The translations under genes and the position numbers were made by a program. DNA of 64,000 nt from Eledone cirrhosa (lineage: Eukaryota), in the NCBI GenBank assembly GCA_964016885.1, contig OZ024745.1, positions 104,222,001 through 104,286,000 on the forward strand, given 5' to 3'. The notes under the pieces are model-generated. The model ran no database searches, was not told where the DNA came from, and worked only from the letters and a program-made list of their open reading frames with translations. Shown one piece after another: positions 28,646 through 62,093 of this stretch; the first letter of the stretch is position 1, and every line of letters begins with the position of its first letter.

Positions 28646-28683
28646 CGAGCTGAGGATCCGCTAAGGTGAAACAATTGTTCTCG
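28646..28683 (+). ncRNA. Minimal hammerhead ribozyme (5' pLTR)
   Basis: CGAG-CTGAGGA-TCC(GCTAA)GGT-GAAAC-AATT-GTT^CTCG. Confidence 0.85.
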
Positions 28684-39239: not shown

Positions 39240-40748
39240 TTAGGGAAGTGCTTCCCTAAATTCACAAATACCATAACATATTTAATAGAAATACTATGAA
39301 ACTATCTTACTCTACTGCAACCAACATAGAATCACACATACAGAAAATTAACTATAAACGAATCTCTAATACAAATAGCCTGCAAACAAGCACCATAACA
39401 CCAAATACAAAACACATACACATAAAAACATCACATCCACACACACGTCAGAACACATCACAACAATACATCAACCAACCCAAATCTCAGCCCATACATA
39501 ACAACATACAAAACCGCATCGTCGAATCGGCATATAGAAAGGCCTCAAAATGTAACTGTCACTTACCAGATAAGTGCCCATTACAAAATAGATGCCTTGA
39601 ATCAAATATAGTGTACCTATGTACTATAAATTCAGGCAACTTAGCATGGCACTACATAGGTTCTACAGCGAGGGAGTTCATAAAACGGTGGTATGTCCAC
39701 AGACACTCTACAAAGAACCGTAAACTACTGAATACAACAACGCTCGCTAATAAAATCTGGCAGCTTAAAGATACAAATCAAGAATACAGGATTAGCTGGT
39801 CTAAATTGTCAGGGGCAATGGCCTACAAAATTGGTATGTCCCACTGTAGACTTTGCAATATGGAATTATTCCATATTTTAAAATATGACAAAATGCTGCT
39901 TAACAGCAAAAACGGTCAATTTTCTGTAGATATAAAGCAGCAAATAAATTCGATAATTTCAAACCAACTTGATTCGACCCAACAATTCCATAATTCAAAT
40001 TATACCACCTGAGTCTATTATAATAACCCATTATCATCATTGTTAGTATTATTGTTATTAACTGTCAATGAATCAACATCATAACCTATTATATTTCATT
40101 TCTCTCTTTCATTTCTCTCTTTCATTTTCTATCTTTCAAATTCTTTCCCTAAATATATTTTATCTCTTACATTATAACCTATCGTATTATCTTCACTTCT
40201 AATATAACTTCCAATTTATTAATTTATTAATTTAACTAATACATATATGAATATATTTAATATGTTCATGTTTATACCATCATATATTTATATTTTAACC
40301 ACCAACATCACAACTATTTTCAACAATCATATTATGTTCATTTTCTTCGCACACATATAAATATTTTTATTTATTTTTTATCATCTTCGCTATAACTTAT
40401 TTATTATTATTCATTTATTATCATTAATTTATTTTTTCTCTCTATTTTTCTTTATCTTTTTTCTTTATTCTCTTTTTTCTTTTTTTCTTTCTTTCTTTCT
40501 TTCTCTTTTTTTTTTCTCTCATTTACTTTTTCTTTCTTTATTACTGATGTTGTAATTTGAATTTGTAAACGCTATGTATAATTTTAAACAGTTTTTCTGA
40601 TGATTTGGTTAAGCATACATCGTATTTAAAATTGAGTGACACAACTTCAAGTGATTAGCAATTTTAAGACAACTTAATCAATGAAACAATTGTTAATACT
40701 GTAAATAAAACCCTTTTTGTATTGTTGAACATGTTATTCTTCACTCTT

Positions 40749-42552: not shown

Positions 42553-43700
42553 TGTGCTGCTGCTGAATGTCAGAGGCCTGGTGAAACTCACTAACATGAG
42601 TAAAATTTCCTACCTGGGAGACTTAGCCATAAGCAATCAAGCATTATGCATGGCACTAACCGAAACGCACCTGTATAGCAGATGCGGAAATACATATACC
42701 AAAATATACTGTATTTCGTTCGGACAGGAAGGAGAGAACTCATGGTGGGGTTGCTCTGTATATCCGTGAAGATGTCACACCAATTGTACTGTTGACACAT
42801 TCAAACCCAGTCTGTGACACACTGATAATACATATGAAGCAACTACAGACAGTAATATGTGTCACATATCGGCCACTCGATGCCCCAGTCATGAGGGTAA
42901 ATTTGAGGATAGCCTCTGTAGGATAGAAGAGGTCCTTGACAAACTGGACCAGGGTCTCAACATTCTACTGCTGGGTGACTTCAGCCTGCCAAAGGTCAAA
43001 TGGCCTGAGGGCCACTTCCTCCCTGGAATTACATCACTAGAACAGAGACAGACGGAGTCCCTGCTGGCCTTCACACACAAGCTGCTCATGGAACAAGCAG
43101 TACTTCTCCCAACAAGAGGAGAGAATGTTCTAGATCTCTGTTTTACAAACAACGCAGTACTCATTCACAATGTAAAAGTGATACTAACGATTTTCTCGGA
43201 TCACAACTTAGTAGAACTAATGATATGTGGTCCGAGAGAATCAACAGAGACACCATCAAGAAGCACCGGGAACTTATCCAGCCTTAACTTCTACGAGGCT
43301 AACTGGAAAAAGATCAAGAGAGAAATCCAGAAGCAAATATGGGGCGAAAACATCGCCACACAAGACACCAACACACATTTTCAACACTTCATGACAACGA
43401 TACAAACTATATGCCCCGGAGAAAAAGGCCAAGAGATACAAAAATCTTATTCCCAGAGATAGGAAAATCCTTATGAGACGAAGAACTAAGCTCTCAAACC
43501 AGTTGAATGCACAACAAAAAAACAAAAACAAGAAAGAATCCTATTTGAAACGTACACTACTTGACATCGAGATTGCACTCAAACTTTCCCATGAAAATGA
43601 GAGGGCAAAGAAAGAAAACAGGGTCATCGAAAATATTAAAATAAACCCTAAGACCTTCTTTAAATTTGCAAAAGAGACTGCTTCGGTACACTTAAAGGGC
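42553..43700 (+). mobile_element. CR1-like LINE fragment (APE endonuclease region)
   Basis: LLNVRGL, ALTETHL, GGVALY, LLGDF.LP.VKW, PTRGENVLDLCFTN, SDHNLV, NPKTFFKF. Confidence 0.82.
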
Positions 43701-43704
43701 GCTA

Positions 43705-44624
43705 GATAAACTTAAACTAAATATTAAGATAGTGGAAAGAACAGGTACCTCCATAAAAACACTTATTAGTAATACATACTCTTTTCAAAGACCTCCCTGT
43801 ATAGATAAGAAATGCATAATCTGTAAACTAAGCCCCCATATTAACTGTAAAACTAGAAACATAGTATATAGCATAATATGTACTGAGGGACAATGTAAAG
43901 ATAAGAATATAATGTACAGAGGTGAGACAGCTCGTAGCATAGGAGAACGATTAAATGAACACTGGCGAGAACTCCAAGATAGAAAGGACTCATCAGTACT
44001 CCACCAACATGCTAAAATACAACATAAGGGCAAATTAGAGAACATAAAAATTATAAATAAAATCTACACACAGAAAAGACGCAATGTTTAGACAAATCAC
44101 AGAGGCAATAAACATAAATGAGCGCCAACCAAAATTAAATAGAAAACTTGAATGGAATAGCAACATCACAACTTACAATTAAGGACAAAAGGAAAACACA
44201 TACACGCATAAAGCAAACAACTAACTTGTAGCATGTAAATAAACAAATAAAAACACACACAGACACCTGGATGTAACACATGCGCAAACTAAGCACACAA
44301 CACACACAAAAACAAGATGGCGTAGGACAGAACAAGGGATAGGCACAAAACAAAGAAAAGAATCCCGAGTCACTGATGTGGTCACAGAATGTGTGACGAA
44401 AGAACTTTGACAATATATGAACAACCGTCCGGTTGTGGAACCAGCCAACCAACCGGAAATTTATCAATTTTTTAAAATTTATAATTTAATTTATAATAAA
44501 TTGAAGTGAAAGCAACTGGTGCGTGTGTTTCTTATTGACAACATGACCCTTCCAAAGTATAACAATATCGGTTTCAACACACGTTTTCAGATACAGAATC
44601 TTACTAAACAAATTCAGAAACGAA

Positions 44625-45220: not shown

Positions 45221-45635
45221 CATACATGTATATATATATATATATACACACATATTTACACACGTATTTACTACGGTTATGAGATGCGGTTTCTTATTCG
45301 TGTACAACTTCTGATTTTAGCCTAAGAAAATATCTATATGCGTGTGTAATTTATACACGCATACATTTATTTTTTTAATTTCAATTGAGTTCTTAACACG
45401 TTGGGTTGATAATGTTTTCGATAAAACTAATTAACCCGCGTGTATATTATTTTTTATCTTCCTTTCGTGGATCGTGGTTATCTCCCCTTCCCGCTTCGTG
45501 ACGCTAAAATACTTCCTCAGTCAAAAACTGCTGGAATTTTAAATTTGGCGGTCATTCGAGGCGAGAGGGAGAAACTTAACGGACACGATTTTTGACTGCG
45601 GTAAGAATTTTTTCTTATATCAAAGTTTAATGGGC

Positions 45636-45760
45636 TTCCACTGATGATTTATAAACGCCCACCTAAATATATTCTTACATGAATGTATATTAGGCTTCTA
45701 CATAAACTGGAAATATTCTCCCAATTTGTAGAAAACTTATAATGAAACAATTGTTTGGAA
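45636..45760 (+). ncRNA. Hammerhead ribozyme with a branched about 95-nt stem II domain
   Basis: TTCCA-CTGATGA-TTTATAA..TTATAAT-GAAAC-AATT-GTT^TGGAA; cut after 45755. Confidence 0.82.
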
Positions 45761-46635
45761 AGAGAGATATACTTTAACTTTAATTATATCTCATAAAATA
45801 ATACAACTGGCTTTTCCACATAATACATATTGTTAGCCCCCCAAACATTTAAATTGGGTTCATATTAAAATATAACCTAATGTTTGTTGAGTGAGATGGT
45901 TATCAGTCAGAGTTTAGCTTTAAACTATCTCTGTTATTGTATTAAATATTTTACTCTTGATTTGCCAGAGGTGTTTATTTCCAGGTACCTTTTAAATTTG
46001 ACTTTCCGTATTTATTACTGTTGTGGATTATTGTGGGTTTTTTTGTTGTTGTAACTTCTCTGTTTTTTAGCCTAAGAAAATATATATATGCCTATGTATA
46101 TAATTACATGCATACATTTATTTTTTTAAATTAATTGAGTTCTTTACACGAGGAATTGATATTAGTTTTGAAATAGCTAATTAACCCGCGTGTGTTTTAT
46201 ATTTTACTCTTAATTCGGCCGGAGATTTACATTCCCATTTGCCCTTTAAAACATAACTTTCCATATTTACTACGGTTATCAGATGCGGTTTCTTATTCGG
46301 GTACAACTTCTGATTTTAGCCTAAGAAAATATCTATATGCGTGTGTAATTTATACACGCATACATTTATTTTTTTAATTTCAATTGAGTTCTTAACACGT
46401 TGGGTTAATAATGTTTTCGATAAAACTAATTAACCCGCGTGTATATTATTTTTTTATCTTCGTTTCGTGGATCGTGGTTATCTCCCATTCCCGCTTCGTG
46501 ACGCTAAAATACTTCCTCAGTCAAAAACTGGTGGAATTTCAAATTTGGCGGTCATTCGAGCCGAGAGGGAGAAACTTAACGGACACGATTTTTGACTGCG
46601 GTAAGAATTTTTTCTTATATCAAAGTTTAATGGGC

Positions 46636-46760
46636 TTCCACTGATGATTTATAAACGCCCACCTAAATATATTCTTACAAGAATGTATATTAGGCTTCTA
46701 CATAAACTGGAAATATTCTCCCAATTTGTAGAAAACTTATAATGAAACAATTGTTTGGAA
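46636..46760 (+). ncRNA. Second copy of the branched-stem-II hammerhead
   Basis: Identical architecture; cut after 46755. Confidence 0.82.
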
Positions 46761-47186: not shown

Positions 47187-47252
<66 letters not shown>

Positions 47253-47257
<5 letters not shown>

Positions 47258-50200
47258 ATACTTTGGGAGGGTCATGTTGCCAATAAGAAACACACGCACC
47301 AGTTGCTTTCACTTCAATTTATTATATATTTATAAATTTATAAATTTACAAATTTACAAATTTACAAATTTACAAACCTATAAATTTCTGGTTGGTTGGT
47401 TGGTTCCACAACCAGATAGTTGTTTATATATATAGTCATAGTCCTTTCGTCACACACTCTGTGACCTCTTCAGTGACTGGGGATTCCTTTCTTCGTTTCT
47501 GTGCCTTTCCTTTCTTCTATCCTACGCCATTTTGTTTCTGTGTGTGTGTTGTGTGCTCAGTTTGCGCATGCGCCACATCCGGGTGTCTGTGTGTGTTTGT
47601 GTTCATTTTTCTATTTTTCTATTTATATTTTTCTATTTGTTTATTTATTTATTTATTTATTGTTGGTTGGTTGTTTGTTCTATGTGTGTGTGTGTTTTCA
47701 TTTTGTCCTGTGTGTGTTTTCATTTTGTCCTGTGTGTGTTTTCATTTTGTGTGTGTTTTCAATTGTAAGTTGTTTGTTCTATGTGTGTGTGTGTTTTCAT
47801 TTTGTCCTTAATTGTAAGTTGTGATGTTGCTGTTCCACTCATATTTTCTATTTAATTTTGGTTTTAATTCTTTTATGCTAACTGCCTCTGTAATTTGCCT
47901 AAACATTGCGTCTTTTCTGTGTGTGGATTCTATTTTTATTTCTATGCTCTCTAATCTACCCCTGTGTTCTATCTTAGCATGTTGGTAGAGCACAGATGAT
48001 TCTTTATTATCTTGGAGGTTTCGCCAGTGTTCATTTATTCGTTCCCCTATACTACGAGCTGTCTCACCTATGTACACTATATTTTTGTTTCTGCATTGTC
48101 CTTCAGTACATCTTATGCTATACACTACATTTCTAGTTTTACAGTTAATATGGGGGCTTATTTTACAGGTTATACATTTCTTATCTATACATGAGGGTCT
48201 TTGGAACGGGTATGTCTTGCTAATAAGTGTTTTTACGGAGATACCAGGTCTTTCTACTATCTTAATATTGAGATTATGTTTATTTAGGGCCCTTCTAAAT
48301 TTGTAGGCTAGTTGGCCTCTAGGGGTTGTATTGATGAACATTACACTCTGGTATTTATTGCTATCATACCATGAGTTTATTCTATTGGCCTTGTTCCTAG
48401 TTCTTTCTATTCTATTCCAAAATTTGCTCCTATACAAGGTGCAGGTCCCATTTATGTCATTATTTACCATTTTTTCCCATTTGGTTCTGGCTCCTTTATA
48501 CACTCTGATTCTATCTCTCTGATTGTAGCCAGAGAACTGCATACGGTGGATGAAGTGTTGTATGTGTCTCTCTAGTTCTTCGGGGTTTCACATGCGGGAC
48601 ACATTCCTCATCACCCGTACCAAATCCGCAATCAGTATGTTGATTTTGGTATGGTCCGAAATGGCCGAGTTTCGGTGGATCAGATGTTTGGAAGTCATGG
48701 GTTTGGCATAATGGGAATGGAGGATTTGTTTTTGGTTGTTAATGGTATCTAACCAGAGCTCTGTGTCTAGTACAGGTAATCGATGGTTGGGGTGTCTACT
48801 TGGGTAGTCTATAGTAACTCTAATGCTCTGGTGGATGGAGTTTGCTATTTGCTGGATGCTTTCCATTGTGTTTTTCTCTAGTTCCTGACTGTTCTTTAGT
48901 GGGGGTGTCTTAACTACGATGTTTATATCATCTACGTAGCGGGAGTACATTATCAGGGTTAAGCTGTCTTCTAATTGTTCATTAAGTTTTTGTTTAAGTC
49001 TACTGTCCCACCATACCATGAATAAGTTAGCTATGTCGCCTGCAATGCTAACACCAATGGCTGCTCCTTCCTCTTGGGCATATGTTTTACCATTAAATTT
49101 GAACATATGTTCCTTAAGGGTTAATTTTATGCTGGCCCCTACCGCATGTGCAATCATTTTCTTCAGTTCATCGTGGTTTTCGGGTGTCCGTATGGCTCTG
49201 GTCCACCCGTTCCATCTATCTGTGTGGGTTTTCTTGGCCATTGAGGTAATGGTAGGTGGTCTGCCTCTTGCTGGTCTTGTAGGGCACAGGTTGCTAAGGT
49301 CATAAGTGTCTAGGTAACTATTACTATGGGTAAGCTTAAGTAGAAGTCTCAGCTCACTGGTATCAATCCCACGGAACTCAACCTTGCTCTCGCTGATCAT
49401 TTCTACGCATTTCTCCACAGCAAAATCCACGTCAATAGATGGATACAGGGACACAACACCCATACTGCCTATTATGCAGTTTGTTAGGTCCCCAGATCGG
49501 TTACCCGCGCCGATTCTGCTGAGGAGGTCCTCCGTGCTGTCACACACATCTGGGGACATCTCAATGATGGGGCGTATGATCAGGGAGAGGAAGTAGGACA
49601 GTCTGTAGTTACTAGCAATGTTAGCCCCACAGACTGGCCGTGTTGGTGGTCCCGCGACAGGGTCCCAGCCCGTTTTATGGTCTTTTCGAAGCCCATACAA
49701 CGCCGGCACGTCATTGTTCCAGGCCTGGAAGTTGTTGGCAGTCCTTTTGTTGGGCTGCATTATATTCGTCCACATCACCATATGGGCATTGAGGGCTTTT
49801 TCTCTATCCTCATGCTCCTGTGGTGTTACCTCTCTTGTGTTAGTGATGTGGGGTTGCATTGCCTGGATGTAGTTTGGCAGGCTGTCAACCGACATTCTGC
49901 CAGACTTGTCTGTTGGAAAACATGCTATCTCTCCATTACGCGAGCGCTGCATGAGCTTACGCAAGCCATTTGGAGATTCTTCTCCCAGTTGCTGGGCCTC
50001 TATTCTATTATGCTTCTTGCTATACTGTTCTATAATATTTCTAAGTTCGGATTTAGCTATACTAAATTGTGCTTCTGTTTGTTCATCGACCTGCGACGGC
50101 AACTGCGTGGGTTTGTTAAATGGCAAAGTCGTGGCGTGGACTCGTCGTAGGTCGAATGATTTATCGGAGGGGTTATAAAATGGAGAGTTCCAGGCTGCTG

Positions 50201-51720
50201 CTTTATGTGTACTAGTGCTATTATTATTGTTAGTTGTGTTGTTTCTATTTCCACCAACAGCCTCAGCTTCATGGTTGTTTCTATGTCTCTCATAATTACT
50301 CCTGTCTCTTTCCACTGGCTCAATGTTGTTATCTACCCTATTTTGTGTGTCTGTGTGTTCGTCTTGGTTATTCTCTTTGTCCTTAGTCTCCCATCTCCTT
50401 TTCCTTTTAATCCTATTACTTTCTCTTATTTCTCTGATTTCTGTGCTACTGTCATTACTTGTTTTCTGTGTCTGTGTGTTTGTTAAGATTGTGGTGGTGG
50501 TGAGAGGCATTGAATGCGTGTGTGTTGTTGTTGTTGATGTGTGTTGTTGTTGTCTCCGTGTGTGTGTGTGTGTTATCGTTGTTGTGTGTGTTGTTGTTGT
50601 ATCTGGGTATGTTGCTATTGTTGTTGTTGTTGATGTGTGTGTTGTTGTTATTGTTGTCTCCGTGTGTGTTATCGTTGTTGTGTGTGTTGTTATTGTTGTT
50701 TGTGTCTGCGTGTCTGTTGTTGTTGTATCTGGGTATGTTGCTATTGTTGTTGTTGTATCTGGGTATGTTGCTATTGTTGTTGTTGTTGTTATTGTTGTTT
50801 GTGTCTGTGTGTCTGTTGTTGTTGGGATGTGTGTTGTATATGTGTGTGCGTATATTGTTGCTTTTGTTTTTGATGCTCCAGCGTAGTTTTGTAAATGATT
50901 TTTCTATTTCTGACAGACAACTAATCATATTTACCTTCTTGAATGTCGCAAATTTGGGTGGCAGACGTAACACAGACATTTCATTATTATCTATTTCCGT
51001 GTTTCCATAAATGTTGGTATTTTCGTTGTTGAACTCTTCAGATAATGAGGTGTCGGCCATGTTGATACCGTCAATTTTGTCGGGATATCTATTGGTATAC
51101 TCTATAGTATCCCGATTTAGCTTTGCCTGTTTAAGCCACTTTAATTTTCTGTTAAAGTGCTTATCACATTCTTGAGTAATGTACTGTTCTTCGGGGCGTA
51201 TAATGCTTATAAATGTTAGTTTTTCTGCTGGTGTGGTGATTTTAGATATTTCTTGTATTAGGTTACGCTTTAGTTTTTCTTGATGACTTAATTCTCTATA
51301 GATCTTCTTTTTTATGTTTAGAATTAAAGTTCGTTTTAGCCTATCTGCTTGTTTTTTGGTGAGTTGTAATCTTCTAACGTCTGTATTGATGGTGTTGGTG
51401 TAGATTCTAGAAGTGGTGCACAGTTTTATGAAGCGTAGTTGTCGAGATGTTATGGTTTTTCGTAGACAACAGAACATGGTGGTTTTCAGTATCTTGTTAG
51501 CCTGGCTAAGGCTTACGATATTTCGTTTCTGAATTTGTTTAGCAAGATTCTTTATCTGAAATCGTGTGTTGAAACCGATATTGTTATACTTTGGGAGGGT
51601 CATGTTGCCAATAAGAAACACACGCACCAGTTGCTTTCACTTCAATTTATTATATATTTATAAATTTATAAATTTACAAATTTACAAATTTACAAACCTA
51701 TAAATTTCTGGTTGGTTGGT
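47253..51720 (-). mobile_element. Near full-length YVDD Penelope-like element (provisionally Nematis-like); ORF 51603->47808 with one frameshift and one in-frame TGA
   Basis: MTLPKYNN.., LRLPPKF..KLRW, TDKSGR, GPPTRPVCG, VVSLYPSI, GAAIGVSIAG, RYVDD, LPVLD, C-x4-C-x2-C linker, YIGETARS..R..EH. Confidence 0.93.
47434..47478 (-). ncRNA. Hammerhead ribozyme (extra nt after A9)
   Basis: Mirror image of 53910-53954. Confidence 0.82.
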
Positions 51721-53804
51721 TGGGACCCTGTCGCGGGACCACCAACACGGCCAGTCTGTGGGGCTAACATTGCTAGTAACTACAGACTGTCCTACTTCCT
51801 CTCCCTGATCATACGCCCCATCATTGAGATGTCCCCAGATGTGTGTGACAGCACGGAGGACCTCCTCAGCAGAATCGGCGCGGGTAACCGATCTGGGGAC
51901 CTAACAAACTGCATAATAGGCAGTATGGATGTTGTGTCCCTGTATCCATCTATTGACGTGGATTTTGCTGTGGAGAAATGCGTAGAAATGATCAGCGAGA
52001 GCAAGGTTGAGTTCCGTGGGATTGATACCAGTGAGCTGGGACTTCTACTTAAGCTTACCCATAGTAATAGTTACCTAGACACTTATGACCTTAGCAACCT
52101 GTGCCCTACAAGACCAGCAAGAGGCAGACCACCTACCATTACCTCAATGGCCAAGAAAACCCACACAGATAGATGGAACGGGTGGACCAGAGCCATACGG
52201 ACACCCGAAAACCACGATGAACTGAAGAAAATGATTGCACATGCGGTAGGGGCCAGCATAAAATTAACCCTTAAGGAACATATGTTCAAATTTAATGGTA
52301 AAACATATGCCCAAGAGGAAGGAGCAGCCATTGGTGTTAGCATTGCAGGCGACATAGCTAACTTATTCATGGTATGGTGGGACAGTAGACTTAAACAAAA
52401 ACTTAATGAACAATTAGAAGACAGCTTAACCCTGATAATGTACTCCCGCTACGTAGATGATATAAACATCGTAGTTAAGACACCCCCACTAAAGAACAGT
52501 CAGGAACTAGAGAAAAACACAATGGAAAGCATCCAGCAAATAGCAAACTCCATCCACCAGAGCATTAGAGTTACTATAGACTACCCAAGTAGACACCCCA
52601 ACCATCGATTACCTGTACTAGACACAGAGCTCTGGTTAGATACCATTAACAACCAAAAACAAATCCTCCATTCCCATTATGCCAAACCCATGACTTCCAA
52701 ACATCTGATCCACCGAAACTCGGCCATTTCGGACCATACCAAAATCAACATACTGATTGCGGATTTGGTACGGGTGATGAGGAATGTGTCCCGCATGTGA
52801 AACCCCGAAGAACTAGAGAGACACATACAACACTTCATCCACCGTATGCAGTTCTCTGGCTACAATCAGAGAGATAGAATCAGAGTGTATAAAGGAGCCA
52901 GAACCAAATGGGAAAAAATGGTAAATAATGACATAAATGGGACCTGCACCTTGTATAGGAGCAAATTTTGGAATAGAATAGAAAGAACTAGGAACAAGGC
53001 CAATAGAATAAACTCATGGTATGATAGCAATAAATACCAGAGTGTAATGTTCATCAATACAACCCCTAGAGGCCAACTAGCCTACAAATTTAGAAGGGCC
53101 CTAATTAAACATAATCTCAATATTAAGATAGTAGAAAGACCTGGTACCTCCGTAAAAACACTTATTAGCAAGACATACCCGTTCCAAAGACCCTCATGTA
53201 TAGATAAGAAATGTATAACCTGTAAAATAAGCCCCCATATTAACTGTAAAACTAGAAATGTAGTGTATAGCATAAGATGTACTGAAGGACAATGTAGAAA
53301 CAAAAATATAGTGTACATAGGTGAGACAGCTCGTAGTATAGGGGAACGAATAAATGAACACTGGCGAGACCCCCAAGATAATAAAGAATCATCTGTGCTC
53401 TACCAACATGCTAAGATAGAACACAGGGGTAGATTAGAGAGCATAGAAATAAAAATAGAATCCACACACAGAAAAGACGCAATGTTTAGGCAAATTACAG
53501 AGGCAGTAAGCATAAAAGAATTAAAACCAAAATTAAATAGAAAATATGAGTGGAACAGCAACATCACAACTTACAATTAAGGACAAAATGAAAACACACA
53601 CACACATAGAACAAACAACTTACAATTGAAAACACACACAAAATGAAAACACACACAGGACAAAATGAAAACACACACAGGACAAAATGAAAACACACAC
53701 ACACATAGAACAAACAACCAACCAACAATAAATAAATAAATAAATAAACAAATAGAAAAATATAAATAGAAAAATAGAAAAATGAACACAAACACACACA
53801 GACA

Positions 53805-53863
53805 CCCGGATGTGGCGCATGCGCAAACTGAGCACACAACACACACACAGAAACAAAATGGCG
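53805..53863 (+). promoter_or_regulatory. Putative pLTR promoter: ETS-like CCGGATGT, NRF1-like GCGCATGCGC, YY1-like AAAATGGCG
   Basis: Motifs cluster 50-100 nt upstream of the HHR and are partly retained in the diverged copies at 36.8 and 44.3 kb. Confidence 0.5.
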
Positions 53864-53909
53864 TAGGATAGAAGAAAGGAAAGGCACAGAAACGAAGAAA
53901 GGAATCCCC

Positions 53910-53954
53910 AGTCACTGAAGAGGTCACAGAGTGTGTGACGAAAGGACTATGACT
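53910..53954 (+). ncRNA. Hammerhead ribozyme (extra nt after A9)
   Basis: AGTCA-CTGAAGA-G-GTCAC(AGAGTGT)GTGAC-GAAAG(GA)CTA^TGACT; cut after 53949. Confidence 0.82.
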
Positions 53955-54266
53955 ATATATATAAACAACTATCTGGTTGTGGAACCAACCAACCAACCAG
54001 AAATTTATAGGTTTGTAAATTTGTAAATTTGTAAATTTGTAAATTTATAAATTTATAAATATATAATAAATTGAAGTGAAAGCAACTGGTGCGTGTGTTT
54101 CTTATTGGCAACATGACCCTCCCAAAGTATAACAATATCGGTTTCAACACACGATTTCAGATAAAGAATCTTGCTAAACAAATTCAGAAACGAAATATAT
54201 ATATATATACATATATATACATGTATATATATATACATATATATATATGTATATATATACATATAT

Positions 54267-55700: not shown

Positions 55701-55721
55701 ATATATATATATATATATATA

Positions 55722-58140
55722 TGGAAAGTTATATTTAAATTGTTGGGTTACAACTAGTAAATATTTATAACTGATATAAAAGCACTCGACAAGTATTTGG
55801 AGTATATTTACGATATTAAATAAACGGAAACTATATTTATAAAACCATATTTATTTCATTATATATATTTCAGGGATATCATATTAACAATATGCTATGC
55901 CTTCCTCAGACAAAATACAATATAGACAGTTTTATAGATAAATAGATTTGACATACCGTTCAACATCGACTTGTATTTGAAAAGTTGATTTGGCAGTGAA
56001 AAAAATTGTAAACAGAAAGAAAAAAAGAGAGAAAAAAGGAAAGAAAGAAAAGAAAGAAAGAAAACGAAGAAAAAGAAGAAAAAGAAGAAATGCATGGAAC
56101 AAAATAGAGAGATGGAAAGATAGATAAAGAGAAGAACTTCATGTAAAGAAACAGAGAGAGATATATAGAGAGAGAGGAGATAGATAGAGTTAGATATATA
56201 GAGAAAAGTAGGTGGTTGGACATCCGTTGAATAAACGTATCAATGATACATTTATTTATTTATTTATTTATTTATTTAGCTCTAGTATTAATGTAAGGGA
56301 GATATATGTGGTTAGGAGAGAAACCAGCTGTTATATAGAGAGAAAAATGAAAAGTAACCAGACATAGGCGAGGCATAAAAACCTATGTTTTAATGTAGAA
56401 GTATTAGTATGTATAAAAACCAGGCACTATAATGTAAATATCAGTATTCCTAAATGAGACACGTTTCCATAATGTGTGAAAAGTAATGATCTTATGTTTA
56501 GTTTTAAAAATTCATATGTTTATATGATAACTACAAACATCGATGTGAATTTACGTGATCAACTCTGCAAACCCCAATTTTCCACGGAGAACATTCTCAT
56601 TGTGCTATAAAAATTTAAGTATACATATATGTGTATATATATACACATATATATAGAGTCTATATTACTACTAATCTTGTCTTTACTCTACGTGATTATC
56701 TATCAAGCAGAAATAGAGAACAGATTTCAATATATTAATAAAAAATATCAGGAACAAAAACCAAAACAAAAAAAAAAAAAAAAAAAAAAAAAATAATAAT
56801 AATAATAATAATAATAAAAAATAATAAAATAGAAAACTAAAAAATATTACGAAAAAATATTACATATTAAAAATATTACATATTAAAAATAAAAATATTA
56901 GAAAATACTACAATAATAAAAACAAACCACAAAGATCAACCCTTCAGAATTAATTGACAATATATTGCCAAGTTCATTATAAGCATCAGAGTCGAAAACA
57001 GATAAAGCTAAAAATTATTTATCAAATCGCGTCTAGCAAAAATCATTTCAAAAAGTTTAGGATGCCCATTTGGTCTACATGTGTTCTTATATTTAATATA
57101 GAAGTTTATCTAGTGTAACGTTTATTCGAAATATTTGGAGCATCAACTTTTAAGGTAGTTTAATTTTTCATGAAGAATGTTTAAATAAAAATAAAAATAA
57201 AAAGAAGAATAAAAAGAAGAAATCGAAAGATTTATCGGCTAGTTTCCCAAATAATTATAAATCAAACTAAATATACTACATTTTAAATTTAAATTTATAT
57301 TTAAAAGTTAAGTTTAATCTATGTTTGCAGCAACTGAATAAATTTGTCCGTAGATTAAGGGAATTTTTAGATTTTAGTATAAAGAATATCTCCTCTGCGC
57401 AGAGGTCACATATCTCAGAGGATGAATTAAAAGGAATCCCTCTTGAGACTATATTCCAAGCCGTCGAATATCTAACGTTATCTAGCTTAAGTTGCCAGAG
57501 TACGCCTGATAGTGCTGTTGAAGATTTTTTGCTTGGATCTGTGAAAGAATTCTTGTGGTTATTATAGCGAAGTTTAAATTCCGTCGATGTGGAACCGACG
57601 TAGTTAAAAGAATTAGAGTCAGTTTTAACATTACAATTGTATATTATATTTTTAACTAAGCAGTTGTTATTTAACGGACATTTAGATCTATCTCTACAGT
57701 TACATTTGTTAACTTGTATATTATTTATGCTATTATCACTAGGTTTTAAGTTCCTATTATTTATTCTATTAATATTTTGTGCTAAATTTTTGGTGGATGA
57801 GTAGGTTAATTTTATAGTATGTCTATTGAAAATTGAGTGATACCTATGTGTTCTAGGGAAGCGATTATCAAGAGCTTTAAAAAATAGTTTAGCGATGTGG
57901 GTTTTAATGTTTAGTGAGAAAGGGGGGGCAAACCAAATTATGTTCCTAGTTCTATTTCTTTTTTGGCTTTTGGAATTATTGTAATGCTTTCTATTATAGT
58001 TGTTAAGGTTGTTGCCGTAATTAAAATAGTTGTTATTTTGTTTAGTTTGTCTATCATTATCTATGTACATAATCTTATCACTATATCCTGCTCTAGCTAA
58101 CGCTTCATTGTAGTACTGGGCTTTTTCGTCGAAAATCTTT
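55722..58140 (-). mobile_element. Inverted 5'-truncated copy of the adjacent Naiad-like PLE (thumb + GIY-YIG ORF 57276-58070, long 3' UTR, HHR 55853-55916)
   Basis: Protein is identical to the C-terminal 264 aa of the 58703-60577 ORF. Confidence 0.95.
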
Positions 58141-58363
58141 CATATTGTTAATATGATATCCCTGAAATATATATATAATGAAATAAATATGGTTTTATAA
58201 ATATAGTTTCCATTTATTTAATATCGTAAATATACTCCAAATACTTGTCGAGTGCTTTTATATCAGTTATAAATATTTACTAGTTGTAACCCAACAATTT
58301 AAATATAACTTTCCATGTATCTTGCTCCAATACTGTTGAGCGCTTTATATTATAACTGAAAAA

Positions 58364-60577
58364 ATGGAATTCTTTAAGATTACTTCCTCTTTAAAAGACA
58401 TACCTCTACCTAGAAACAAAGACTTTATAAAACAATTAATAGATAAATCTGACTCTTTTATAAGGAGAATCAGGTGGCGAGCATTCCACTTTGATAAATC
58501 TAATATAAATGAAAATGTCTCAGACCTAAACAAAGTTTTCAAATCTAAAAGAAATCCACCCCCTAACAAACTTTTATCTGACTTTGAAAACGATATAATT
58601 TCTATCATACAAGGGGTCTAATTCAAGAGAAACTTCAAAGGCCAGGAATATCTGAAAGGCATTAAGGATAATATTGAGACCTTAGAGAAAACTGAGAAGA
58701 TCTTGGTGAAATCTGACAAGACCAACAACCTCTATGGAGTGCAGAAAGACATGTATAATGGCCTCATACTGAAGGAACTGAGGAAAAAGTACAAGGTAGC
58801 AGATAAGGCCGAGCTTGAGAAAATGAATGTCGAAGCATCTTGTATAATGCACGAGTTGGAAATTGAGAACAGAACACAACCTTTCGTGCCCAGGAAACCG
58901 AAGATCAATATGAAAGATCACAAGAGCAATTTTGAAAATGACTTGCCAGTTAGATTGATCGCACCATCAAAATCGGACCTGGGCAAATTAAGCAAAAACA
59001 TTCTTGACAGGGTGATACAGCAAATTAAGAACTTGGATTGTTTACCTAACCTGAGCTTGTGGAAGGGAACTGGAGAGGTTGTTGAGTGGTTTAAGCAAAT
59101 TAAATATAACAATAATAATAAGTTTATTCAACTTGATATTGCTAACTATTATTCTTCTATTACCCCTAATCTACTAAATAAGGCACTAAATTACGCATTC
59201 AAACATACAGACCTAACTAGCAATGAAATGCATATTATATTATCGGCTAGGAAAACATTGATAGAATTTAATGACCAACTATGGACCAGAGCAGATAGAG
59301 ATAGCAATTTTGACATTACTATGGGATCATCCGACTCAGCTCAGGTAACTGACCTTGTGGGCTTATTTTTAATCAATTCGCTACATAGGAAAATACCTGG
59401 TACTACCGGAGGTTTATATAGAGATGACATGCTTTTACTTATTGATAATAATAACTCTGAACTAAATAGAAAATGTAAACAAATTACACAATTTTTTAAT
59501 TACTTTAATCTTAAAATAGAAATTGAGAACAACCATAGAATAGTCAATTTCCTAGATATAACATTAAATCTCAACACATGTCTTCACTATCCTTTTCAGA
59601 AGTTGAATGAAAACTTAAACTATGTCAGCTTTAACTCTAACCACCCCAGATCTGTCAAAAACACTATAGTAAACTCTGTTCAAAAACGTATCTCTAGAAT
59701 CTCATCCAATAGAAAGATTTTCGACGAAAAAGCCCAGTACTACAATGAAGCGTTAGCTAGAGCAGGATATAGTGATAAGATTATGTACATAGATAATGAT
59801 AGACAAACTAAACAAAATAACAACTATTTTAATTACGGCAACAACCTTAACAACTATAATAGAAAGCATTACAATAATTCCAAAAGCCAAAAAAGAAATA
59901 GAACTAGGAACATAATTTGGTTTGCCCCCCCTTTCTCACTAAACATTAAAACCCACATCGCTAAACTATTTTTTAAAGCTCTTGATAATCGCTTCCCTAG
60001 AACACATAGGTATCACTCAATTTTCAATAGACATACTATAAAATTAACCTACTCATCCACCAAAAATTTAGCACAAAATATTAATAGAATAAATAATAGG
60101 AACTTAAAACCTAGTGATAATAGCATAAATAATATACAAGTTAACAAATGTAACTGTAGAGATAGATCTAAATGTCCGTTAAATAACAACTGCTTAGTTA
60201 AAAATATAATATACAATTGTAATGTTAAAACTGACTCTAATTCTTTTAACTACGTCGGTTCCACATCGACGGAATTTAAACTTCGCTATAATAACCACAA
60301 GAATTCTTTCACAGATCCAAGCAAAAAATCTTCAACAGCACTATCAGGCGTACTCTGGCAACTTAAGCTAGATAACGTTAGATATTCGACGGCTTGGAAT
60401 ATAGTCTCAAGAGGGATTCCTTTTAATTCATCCTCTGAGATATGTGACCTCTGCGCAGAGGAGATATTCTTTATACTAAAATCTAAAAATTCCCTTAATC
60501 TACGGACAAATTTATTCAGTTGCTGCAAACATAGATTAAACTTAACTTTTAAATATAAATTTAAATTTAAAATGTAG
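58364..60577 (+). pseudogene. Naiad-like RT-GIY-YIG ORF (about 737 codons) broken by a single in-frame TAA at 58619-58621
   Basis: SLKDIP..RRIRWRA, SDKTNNLY, KDHK, LDIANYYSSI, MGSSDSAQVTDLVG, LYRDD, CNCRDRSKCPL, YVGST, CDLC..CKH. ORFs 58364 and 58703 share a frame. Confidence 0.9.
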
Positions 60578-61570
60578 TATATTTAGTTTGATTTATAATT
60601 ATTTGGGAAACTAGCCGATAAATCTTTCGATTTCTTCTTTTTATTCTTCTTTTTATTTTTATTTTTATTTAAACATTCTTCATGAAAAATTAAACTACCT
60701 TAAAAGTTGATGCTCCAAATATTTCGAATAAACGTTACACTAGATAAACTTCTATATTAAATATAAGAACACATGTAGACCAAATGGGCATCCTAAACTT
60801 TTTGAAATGATTTTTGCTAGACGCGATTTGATAAATAATTTTTAGCTTTATCTGTTTTCGACTCTGATGCTTATAATGAACTTGGCAATATATTGTCAAT
60901 TAATTCTGAAGGGTTGATCTTTGTGGTTTGTTTTTATTATTGTAGTATTTTCTAATATTTTTATTTTTAATATGTAATATTTTTAATATGTAATATTTTT
61001 TCGTAATATTTTTTAGTTTTCTATTTTATTATTATTTATTATTATTATTATTATAATTTTTTTATTTTTATTTATTTTTTTTTTTGGTTTTTGTTTCTGA
61101 TATTTTTTATTAATATATTGAAATCTGTTCTCTATTTCTGCTTGATAGATAATCACGTAGAGTAAAGACAAGATTAGTAGTAATATAGACTCTATATATA
61201 TGTGTATATATATACACATATATGTATACTTAAATTTTTATAGCACAATGAAAATGTTCTCCGTGGAAAATTGGGGTTTGCAGAGTTGATCACGTAAATT
61301 CACATCGATGTTTGTAGTTATCATATAAACATATGAATTTTTAAAACTAAACATAAGATCATTACTTTTCACACATTATGGATACGTGTCTCATTTAGGA
61401 ATACTGATATTTACATTATAGTGCCTGGTTTTTATACATACTAATACTTCTACATTAAAACATAGGTTTTTTATGCCTCGCCTATGTCTGGTTACTTTTC
61501 ATTTTTCTCTCTATATAACAGCTGGTTTCTCTCCTAACCACATATATCTCCCTTACATTAATACTAGAGC

Positions 61571-61601
<31 letters not shown>

Positions 61602-61935
61602 ATGTATCATTGATACGTTTATTCAACGGATGTCCAACCACCTACTTTTCTCTATATATCTATCTCTATCTATCTCCTCTCTCTATATATATCTCTCTCT
61701 GTTTCTTTACATGAAGTTCTTCTCTTTATCTATCTTTCCATCTCTCTATTTTGTTCCATGCATTTCTTCTTTTTCTTCTTTTTCTTCGTTTTCTTTCTTT
61801 CTTTTCTTTCTTTCCTTTTTTCTCTCTTTTTTCTTTCTGTTTACAATTTTTTTCACTGCCAAATCAACTTTTCAAATACAAGTCGATGTTGAACGGTATG
61901 TCAAATCTATTTATCTATAAAACTGTCTATATTGT

Positions 61936-61999
61936 ATTTTGTCTGAGGAAGGCATAGCATATTGTTAATATGATATCCCTGAAATATATATAATGAAAT
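61936..61999 (+). ncRNA. Type-I hammerhead ribozyme (3' pLTR)
   Basis: ATTTTGT-CTGAGGA-AGGCATAGCATATT(GTT)AATATGATATCCCT-GAAAT(ATAT)ATA^ATGAAAT. Confidence 0.83.
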
Positions 62000-62040
62000 A
62001 AATATGGTTTTATAAATATAGTTTCCATTTATTTAATATC

Positions 62041-62093
<53 letters not shown>

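Follow-up and report, generated by a model that had tools for sequence, protein, structure and literature searches.

A type I hammerhead motif with a branched 96-nt stem II in a non-coding, retrozyme-like repeat of Eledone cirrhosa

Identification of a hammerhead motif with a 96-nt stem II

The window analysed here is a 64,000-nt stretch of the Eledone cirrhosa genome (contig OZ024745.1, positions 104,222,001 to 104,286,000 of the forward strand), and coordinates below are positions within it. By reading of the sequence, a type I hammerhead motif was identified at 45632–45760 (+), with the core halves CUGAUGA (45641–45647) and GAAA (45744–45747), in a tandem of a non-coding repeat. The features of this locus are as follows.

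45265–45949 (+): upstream unit of the non-coding repeat, 5′-truncated, preceded by (TA)n
45632–45635 (+): GGGC, 5′ strand of a putative GGGC/GCCC helix, either a lock or a pseudoknot, which pairing of U45631 with A45661 could extend
45636–45640 (+): stem I 5′ strand UUCCA (stem I is CCCA/UGGG in subfamilies F3–F4 and CCUG/CAGG in F5)
45641–45647 (+): hammerhead core CUGAUGA (C3–A9)
45648–45656 (+): U10.1 and the 5′ strand of basal stem II; UUAUAA is paired, and AC is unpaired where most copies have a paired GU
45657–45661 (+): junction linker GCCCA, complementary to 45631–45635
45662–45694 (+): hairpin P2a, 13 bp with one bulge and a 6-nt loop (strands 45662–45674 and 45681–45694)
45696–45733 (+): hairpin P2b, 7-bp stem UUCUACA/UGUAGAA (45696–45702 and 45727–45733) with a weak distal stem
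45734–45743 (+): 3′ linker, basal stem II 3′ strand UUAUAA (45737–45742) and U11.1 (U45743)
45744–45755 (+): GAAA core, palindromic stem III ACAAUUGU and predicted GUU cleavage site
45756–45760 (+): stem I 3′ strand UGGAA
45950–46949 (+): complete unit of 1,000 bp, in which the longest ATG frame has 77 codons, with an internal duplication of ~260 bp (74% alike) and (TA)n at its end
46632–46760 (+): second hammerhead copy, predicted dimer partner, exactly 1,000 nt downstream of the first

Three stems surround the core, stem I (UUCCA/UGGAA) being open-ended, and cleavage is predicted 3′ of U45755 in the GUU triplet at 45753–45755. Stem III (ACAAUUGU) was folded as 2 bp in a monomer and 8 bp in a dimer. 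The core columns (CUGANGA...GAAA...UH, with A15.1–U16.1) were invariant in 30 of 30 aligned rows, which had been chosen with the core as anchor, and stem I and basal stem II changed compensatorily between genomic subfamilies. Position 10.1–11.1 was U·U in the window rather than an R–Y pair, A–U in F3 and G–C in one F2 variant; a U10.1–U11.1 start of stem II is described as a tolerated hammerhead variant (PMC3088659).

Scanning with Rfam gave no hammerhead match at this motif even at E values up to 5, as expected for a stem II of 96 nt. This agreed with an earlier note on this DNA, made from the letters alone, which held that standard descriptors would miss such a hammerhead; the gathering scan missed the minimal hammerheads of the window as well. 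A hairpin (GAGAU...AUCUC, 45762–45790) lies directly 3′ of stem I, and was also present in F1, F3 and F5 with altered loops.

The host repeat is non-coding and resembles retrozymes

The window tandem, one truncated and one full unit, was inserted between (TA)n tracts. Searching the 3.0-Gb genome gave 2,421 candidates for the ribozyme region, 40 of which were scored, and units of 1000, 742, 730, 702 and 696 bp were found. Copies were variably 5′-truncated and shared a 3′ end: among 72 F1–F2 copies, 44 ended in the same motif followed by (TA)n, 15 continued seamlessly into a next unit, six ended otherwise and seven were without the motif. The longest ATG frames in the two units scanned were of 77 and 39 codons, and a comparison of the units with four proteins of Penelope elements (PLEs) gave no match better than E 0.38. 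No F-type locus formed the 3′ end of an ORF with reverse transcriptase (RT) and GIY-YIG, a search for an autonomous F element found none, and an F-type ribozyme was present at 0 of 30 Hydra-endonuclease loci. Two loci with Hydra ORF pieces upstream (L171 and L228) were rejected as coding F elements, these pieces being separate insertions at TA tracts.

As in retrozymes, the units were non-coding, in tandem and carried one type I hammerhead apiece. The host repeat, known here from genomic sequence, is a retrozyme-like, non-autonomous PLE derivative. The earlier note had treated the motif as a PLE hammerhead; its host is a derivative without an ORF and not a coding PLE, autonomous Hydra-clade PLEs encoding a single ORF. 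The PLE at 47.2–54.1 kb was also rejected as host, since its hammerhead is different and its 47.8–50.9 kb copy lies on the other strand.

We infer that the helper of the repeat is a Hydra-clade PLE, because coding Hydra remnants in the window have the same U·U-flanked core and a GAAACAATTGTT stem III, published Hydra hammerheads are often U·U, and F1, F5, group A and the 58.6-kb element all have an ACTC motif after the 3′ boundary. Sequence shared by F units and autonomous elements comprised only the stretch from core to stem III and this short motif. (TA)n targeting, a fixed 3′ end with 5′ truncation and partial tandems were all present in the host repeat; they are common to other PLE clades and so are not diagnostic of a Hydra helper alone.

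Short motifs (TTGAGTTCT, ACTGCTGG and TTGAGTGAG) were kept in F1.5–F5 units amid 36–50% background identity; their regions in the window are 46067–46090, 46370–46390, 45526 and 45920, and TTGAGTTCT is duplicated in the 1-kb unit. These motifs are possible promoter or RT-binding signals. At one locus (L116, G000:C5:88582000-88585000), F2-type and F1-type units stood in tandem in a single array, which suggests template switching or nested insertion.

Other PLEs and hammerheads were also seen in the window. Hydra-type hammerheads with a 2-bp stem II (CC/GG) at 28650 and 30437 (+) flank an RT remnant. A Hydra-clade PLE at 55717–62049 has an ORF at about 58.4–60.6 kb and an inverted truncated copy, and stem II of its hammerhead at 61943 is seemingly ~36 nt long and bulged. 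The ORF traits of the Hydra clade (RT plus C-terminal GIY-YIG, DKT and CxCX5C) were found in the elements at 58622–60577 and 39260–40012. Another PLE family, at 47250–54138 and 43695–44600, has a long ORF broken by stops and an inverted 2.4-kb duplication (99.6% alike); its hammerheads at 47473 (−) and 53915 (+) are ordinary, and the core is damaged in the older copy, at 44.37 kb. Small hammerhead motifs of further families lie at 958 (+), 36788 (−) and 33580 (−). A Pfam search with five window ORFs gave a single weak match, to RVT_1.

Folding of the stem II domain

The stem II insert was a 96-nt three-way junction, formed by a basal helix (UUAUAA 45649–45654 with UUAUAA 45737–45742) and the hairpins P2a and P2b. 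Its fold had a z of −4.7 and was better than those of 200 of 200 dinucleotide shuffles. The TTATAA base strands and the two sub-hairpins that the earlier note had reported between the hammerhead halves were each found in place, and its picture of a branched domain standing on the TTATAA helix held for the hairpins, which had predicted pairing probabilities of at least 0.95 in the window copies, but not for the 6-bp basal helix, which was outside the minimum-energy fold of both copies. The probability of this helix in the window copy was ~0.49 when the insert was folded alone and ~0 with its flanks.

The window copies have AC at 45655–45656; most members of the family have GU there, with a basal helix of 8 bp. 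In public contigs of two sequencing runs, G and T made up 93% and 82% of the depth at these two positions, the window copies being the minority type. AC in place of GU costs two basal pairs and lowers the probability of the basal helix from 0.99 to 0.49; the subfamily of the window copies multiplied despite these two broken pairs. The two window copies differed at one base in 140 (T at 45680, A at 46680; nearly all T in the public contigs). This single difference had been placed in a loop by the earlier note; it falls instead on the edge of the loop, where copy 2 gains a pair from it. Since the copies are 97.8% alike and in tandem, retention of the fold in both is no evidence of selection.

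Covariation among genomic subfamilies

Six subfamilies, old and young, were found in the genome (F1, F1.5, F2, F3, F4 and F5), including F3 with a 702-bp unit and 2,026 candidates, which may overlap with other subfamilies, and F5 with a 696-bp unit and 463 candidates. Thirty copies, hand-picked out of more than 100, were aligned by plain MAFFT without fitting to a structure. The insert was 94–98 nt long in all 30, and F1–F5 identity was 44–48%, the lowest identities among the inserts reaching 41–48%. Changes on both sides were found for 6 of 8 pairs of the basal helix and 6 of the 9 pairs counted in P2a (12 of 17 in total), and 90.8% of the cells were pairing. The covariation score was 0.549, compared with 0.270 ± 0.017 after shuffling (reached by 0 of 500 shuffles) and at most 0.167 with slid partners; 12 doubly changed pairs were reached by 30 of the 500 shuffles, a control inflated by relatedness.

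P2b and stem I were left out of the 17-pair count because MAFFT misaligns both in F5. By reading, stem I changes between subfamilies from UCCA/UGGA to CCCA/UGGG to CCUG/CAGG; P2b shows a single compensatory change in F3 and is bulged in F5. The signal within F1–F2 alone (54 distinct copies) was weak, 3 of 42 pairs being changed on both sides, and RNAalifold, run on alignment A1, missed the basal helix and showed the core paired to stem III. Folded alone, 21 of the 30 inserts gave two hairpins closed by an end-to-end helix, as judged by a crude shape flag. A model built from F1–F3 recovered, at E < 1e-18, each of the five F4 loci given and, at E < 0.05, most of the F5 loci, these E-values being rough. 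Stem III varied in sequence by subfamily and stayed near-palindromic (ACAAUUGU, ACGAUCGU, ACGAUUCGU, ACGAUAUCGU and a bulged GACGUC, with variants at L169:825-2394 (F3), L193 and L201 among them), and the cleavage-site triplet was GUU, GUA or GUC.

Length and fold were kept, with covariation, across diverged subfamilies, and we are highly confident that the junction is a real, selected structure. The earlier note had named a lack of covariation across copies as grounds for dropping the domain; this did not apply, the junction covarying across genomic subfamilies. A tolerated insertion, for which any stable fold closing stem II is allowed and is kept only to spare the core, seems very improbable. 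Hammerhead stem II tolerates wide variation, sequence conservation of the insert was not above that of the 3′ flank (88/72/44% against 91/73/49%), and neighbouring hairpins look conserved too; but the length, the topology, the linker lengths and GGGC/GCCC were all retained at about 45% identity.

Stem II length classes and a second long domain

Exact CTGANGAT-gap-TGAAACAATTGTT matches numbered 7,004 at gaps of 5–35, 80 at 40–70, 3,070 at 71–100 and 28 at 101–131, with 0–1 matches in control searches, indicating that stem II is either tiny or ~80–95 nt long. The rare matches of the 40–70 class were mostly one-off deletions of long forms, which also speaks against a tolerated insertion. A third long-insert family at gaps of 101–131 was rejected, the six of 28 matches inspected all being chimeras. 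The long class consisted of the branched F family (about two thirds of 100 rows listed) and an unbranched group A. Hydra-type hammerheads with a 2-bp stem II outnumbered this class in exact matches (7,004 against 3,070), so a large domain is not needed by every such element. Group A is represented in the window by the following hammerhead.

40583–40705 (+): group A hammerhead with an unbranched 79-nt stem II, 3′ of the Hydra-type GIY-YIG ORF remnant at 39260–40012

Stem II of this hammerhead (at 40597) is built of a 9-bp helix at the base, an asymmetric internal loop and a distal hairpin of 12 bp; across group A, stem II was 78–82 nt long. In 28 copies, 13 of 23 pairs were doubly changed (score 0.386 against 0.250, 0 of 500 shuffles), the structure having been derived from the same alignment as was tested. 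The group A hammerhead lay 0.6–1.0 kb downstream of a Hydra endonuclease in 11 of 30 loci, indicating that long stem II domains also occur in coding elements, here in the 3′ UTR. Homology of the F and A inserts beyond the core was not supported, model R1 missing 40597 and matching group A only weakly. A pattern scan of metagenomes gave seven matches, none of which extended into the domain, and these were judged to be chance.

Two unrelated long stem II designs in one genome, one of them in coding Hydra elements, would be consistent with a domain whose main role is in protein binding or packaging, with the helper RT or a host factor as partner, cleavage being secondary or protein-assisted. The junction linkers keep their sequence, and cleavage by the PAc hammerhead requires its protein (PMC11167929). 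We consider such a role unlikely: the fixed 3′ end would place the RT start ~190 nt 3′ of the ribozyme, no clear sequence is common to the F and A inserts, so that an F-like domain was not seen in any helper, and relatives with a minimal stem II thrive.

GGGC/GCCC complementarity and models of its function

GGGC (45632–45635), directly 5′ of stem I, is complementary to GCCC of the junction linker (45657–45660), a feature absent from the earlier note. Both were the majority state in all six groups. Both strands were intact in 43 of 44 copies of F1, 6 of 8 of F1.5, 8 of 11 of F2, 13 of 14 of F3, 8 of 8 of F4 and 18 of 28 of F5, the F4 copies and part of the F5 copies having been retrieved with the motif as bait; among F5 rows retrieved by DNA similarity without this bait, 8 of the 17 listed kept both strands. 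The spacing was near-fixed, GGGC lying 5–7 nt before C3 and GCCC 9–10 nt after A9. A GGGC pattern search gave 52 matches, some of them unrelated, and 0 in the control; as members, L199 and L204 were rejected for being minimal hammerheads, and L184, L200, L205 and L244 for looking like chance. No both-side change of the four core pairs was found in the subfamilies compared, both strands being invariant in the majorities, and with pairs never doubly changed covariation is no proof of pairing.

In nested folding, the GGGC/GCCC pairing probability was at least 0.65 in 8 of 12 representatives, where it competed with stem I and the basal helix, and pairing was rare (P 0.01–0.36) in F3 and two of three F5-type representatives. 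The earlier note had offered, as a second ground for refutation, that folding prevents the core from forming. This applied in part: the core-open fold was favoured in 0 of the 12 representatives, lying 0.7–6.6 kcal/mol above the minimum, with the window copy the worst. The self-duplex of stem III was worth −6.4 kcal/mol (F1/F2) to −14.7 kcal/mol in intact copies. ViennaRNA computes nested folds and a pseudoknotted state is outside its scoring, so these values do not separate a lock from an activating contact.

We tentatively model the junction as a folding switch, by which a lone ribozyme would be off until two tandem copies pair. Tandem units would be transcribed through, and P2a and P2b are predicted to form in both states, while a local GGGC/GCCC helix would compete with stem I and the basal helix. 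Tandem transcripts could then pair through the palindromic stem III, which would pay for the core-open fold, and cleavage at two sites would free a unit-length RNA. A Hydra-clade RT/endonuclease might then copy this RNA, or its circle, starting at an internal AT-rich site, and the off fold would protect the template from re-cleavage. Retrozymes are reported to cleave as dimers and then circularise (PMC7229834), and loop I–II pairing to control cleavage in the hammerhead of the CYDV-RPV satellite (PMC6155905), a precedent that favours the switch. Copying from an internal AT-rich site is known for PAc (PMC11167929); cleavage was dispensable for insertion of a Poseidon PLE in vitro (PMC11167929), which counts against the switch.

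GGGC/GCCC could alternatively be an activating pseudoknot, that is, a base-paired contact between stem I and stem II, in which the junction presents GCCC, the hairpins buttress it, and the weak AU-rich stems and the U·U closing pair are offset. Somewhat doubtful in itself, this is nearly as likely as the switch. Topologically, the helix could form alongside stem I and the basal helix, its spacing hardly varies across subfamilies, and such a pseudoknot is predicted for about 40% of hammerheads (PMC3088659). GGGC/GCCC was also kept in F3 and F5, where the basal helix dominates the nested fold and the pairing is rare, which fits a pseudoknot better than a competing hairpin. Stem II (9 steps), however, exceeds stem I by 4–5 bp; the link looks strained, and this is a poor fit for an in-core pseudoknot and favours the switch. 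In the known solved structures of extended hammerheads, stem I exceeds stem II at the contact. The four core pairs are also without compensatory change, and group A has by eye no evident equivalent pairing. A regulatory reading, in which the stem II junction makes a docking contact with the 5′ flank of stem I, and a dimer partner or the helper RT switches cleavage on, appears slightly more doubtful.

Comparison with known hammerheads and retrozymes

The Hydra-clade PLE hammerheads of Craig et al. (2021, PMC8557442) are likewise of type I, with a stem I mostly of 3–7 bp, frequent U·U flanking stem II, a short and often palindromic stem III, and (TA)n insertion. Loop II is at most 10 nt in all 26 Hydra/Repbase rows of their File S2, whereas the window hammerhead has a branched stem II of 96 nt. 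Among PLEs, loop II is longest in Selaginella PLE-X1 (29–35 nt), and a long viral helix II has 6–8 bp. The minimal PLE hammerheads of Cervera and de la Pena (2014, PMC4209133) share a helix II of 7–8 bp, a helix I of 4–5 bp, the palindromic stem III and the dimer model; neither an added domain nor a base-paired I–II contact is described in the parts of that paper covered.

Metazoan non-LTR retrozymes (PMC7229834; bioRxiv 10.64898/2026.07.22.740005) are also non-coding tandems, low in GC, in which each unit has a single type I hammerhead, and are proposed to be driven by PLEs. The axolotl retrozyme hammerhead HHR_Amex2 has U·U at the base of helix II, as in the window hammerhead. Reported retrozyme sizes are 51–972 bp, the units here (0.7–1 kb) being at the long end. 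Copies here differ from the metazoan retrozymes so described in being dispersed, 5′-truncated, (TA)n-targeted and branched in stem II, and they are known from DNA.

Pairing between the peripheries of stem I and stem II is reported to attenuate cleavage in the CYDV-RPV satellite RNA hammerhead, which reportedly also acts as a double hammerhead; it differs in being of type III and from a plant viral satellite. This hammerhead, the subject of work by Miller and Silver in 1991 and Song et al. in 1999, reportedly has an extended stem II with an internal loop, not a three-way junction. A base-paired I–II contact, putative here, is shared with the pseudoknot hammerheads (PMC3088659, PMC11300833), and a large natural insertion with the discontinuous Clec2 hammerhead, where it is described in helix I (PMC6155905). 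A full-text literature search, mostly of open papers and of parts of them, found no natural hammerhead with a branched stem II, and survey supplements and satellite papers may hold long ones. It is well supported that the branched stem II makes a new structural form of an already known ribozyme, carried by an element of a known type, its function being predicted.

In searches for hammerheads, stem II is allowed no more than a few bases, so that long-stem II ribozymes go uncounted; here these are the 3,070 exact matches and the F3–F5 subfamilies missed by the pattern. Unexplained hammerhead half cores 35–50 nt apart are mentioned for Naiads by Craig et al. (2021, PMC8557442), and some of the PLEs reported with only a half core at this spacing may be long-stem II cases. 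PMC7229834 leaves unanswered how re-cleavage of retrozyme circles is avoided; the F family offers a candidate of four base pairs that can be mutated directly, and six natural subfamilies to compare. If the proposed function is true, the domain would be nature's equivalent of the aptazymes engineered at stem II and would answer how metazoan retrozyme circles avoid re-cleavage. On this reading, stem II would have been expanded twice, with different folds, among the Hydra-type elements of this one genome. Natural stem II insertions also inform the design of ribozyme switches.
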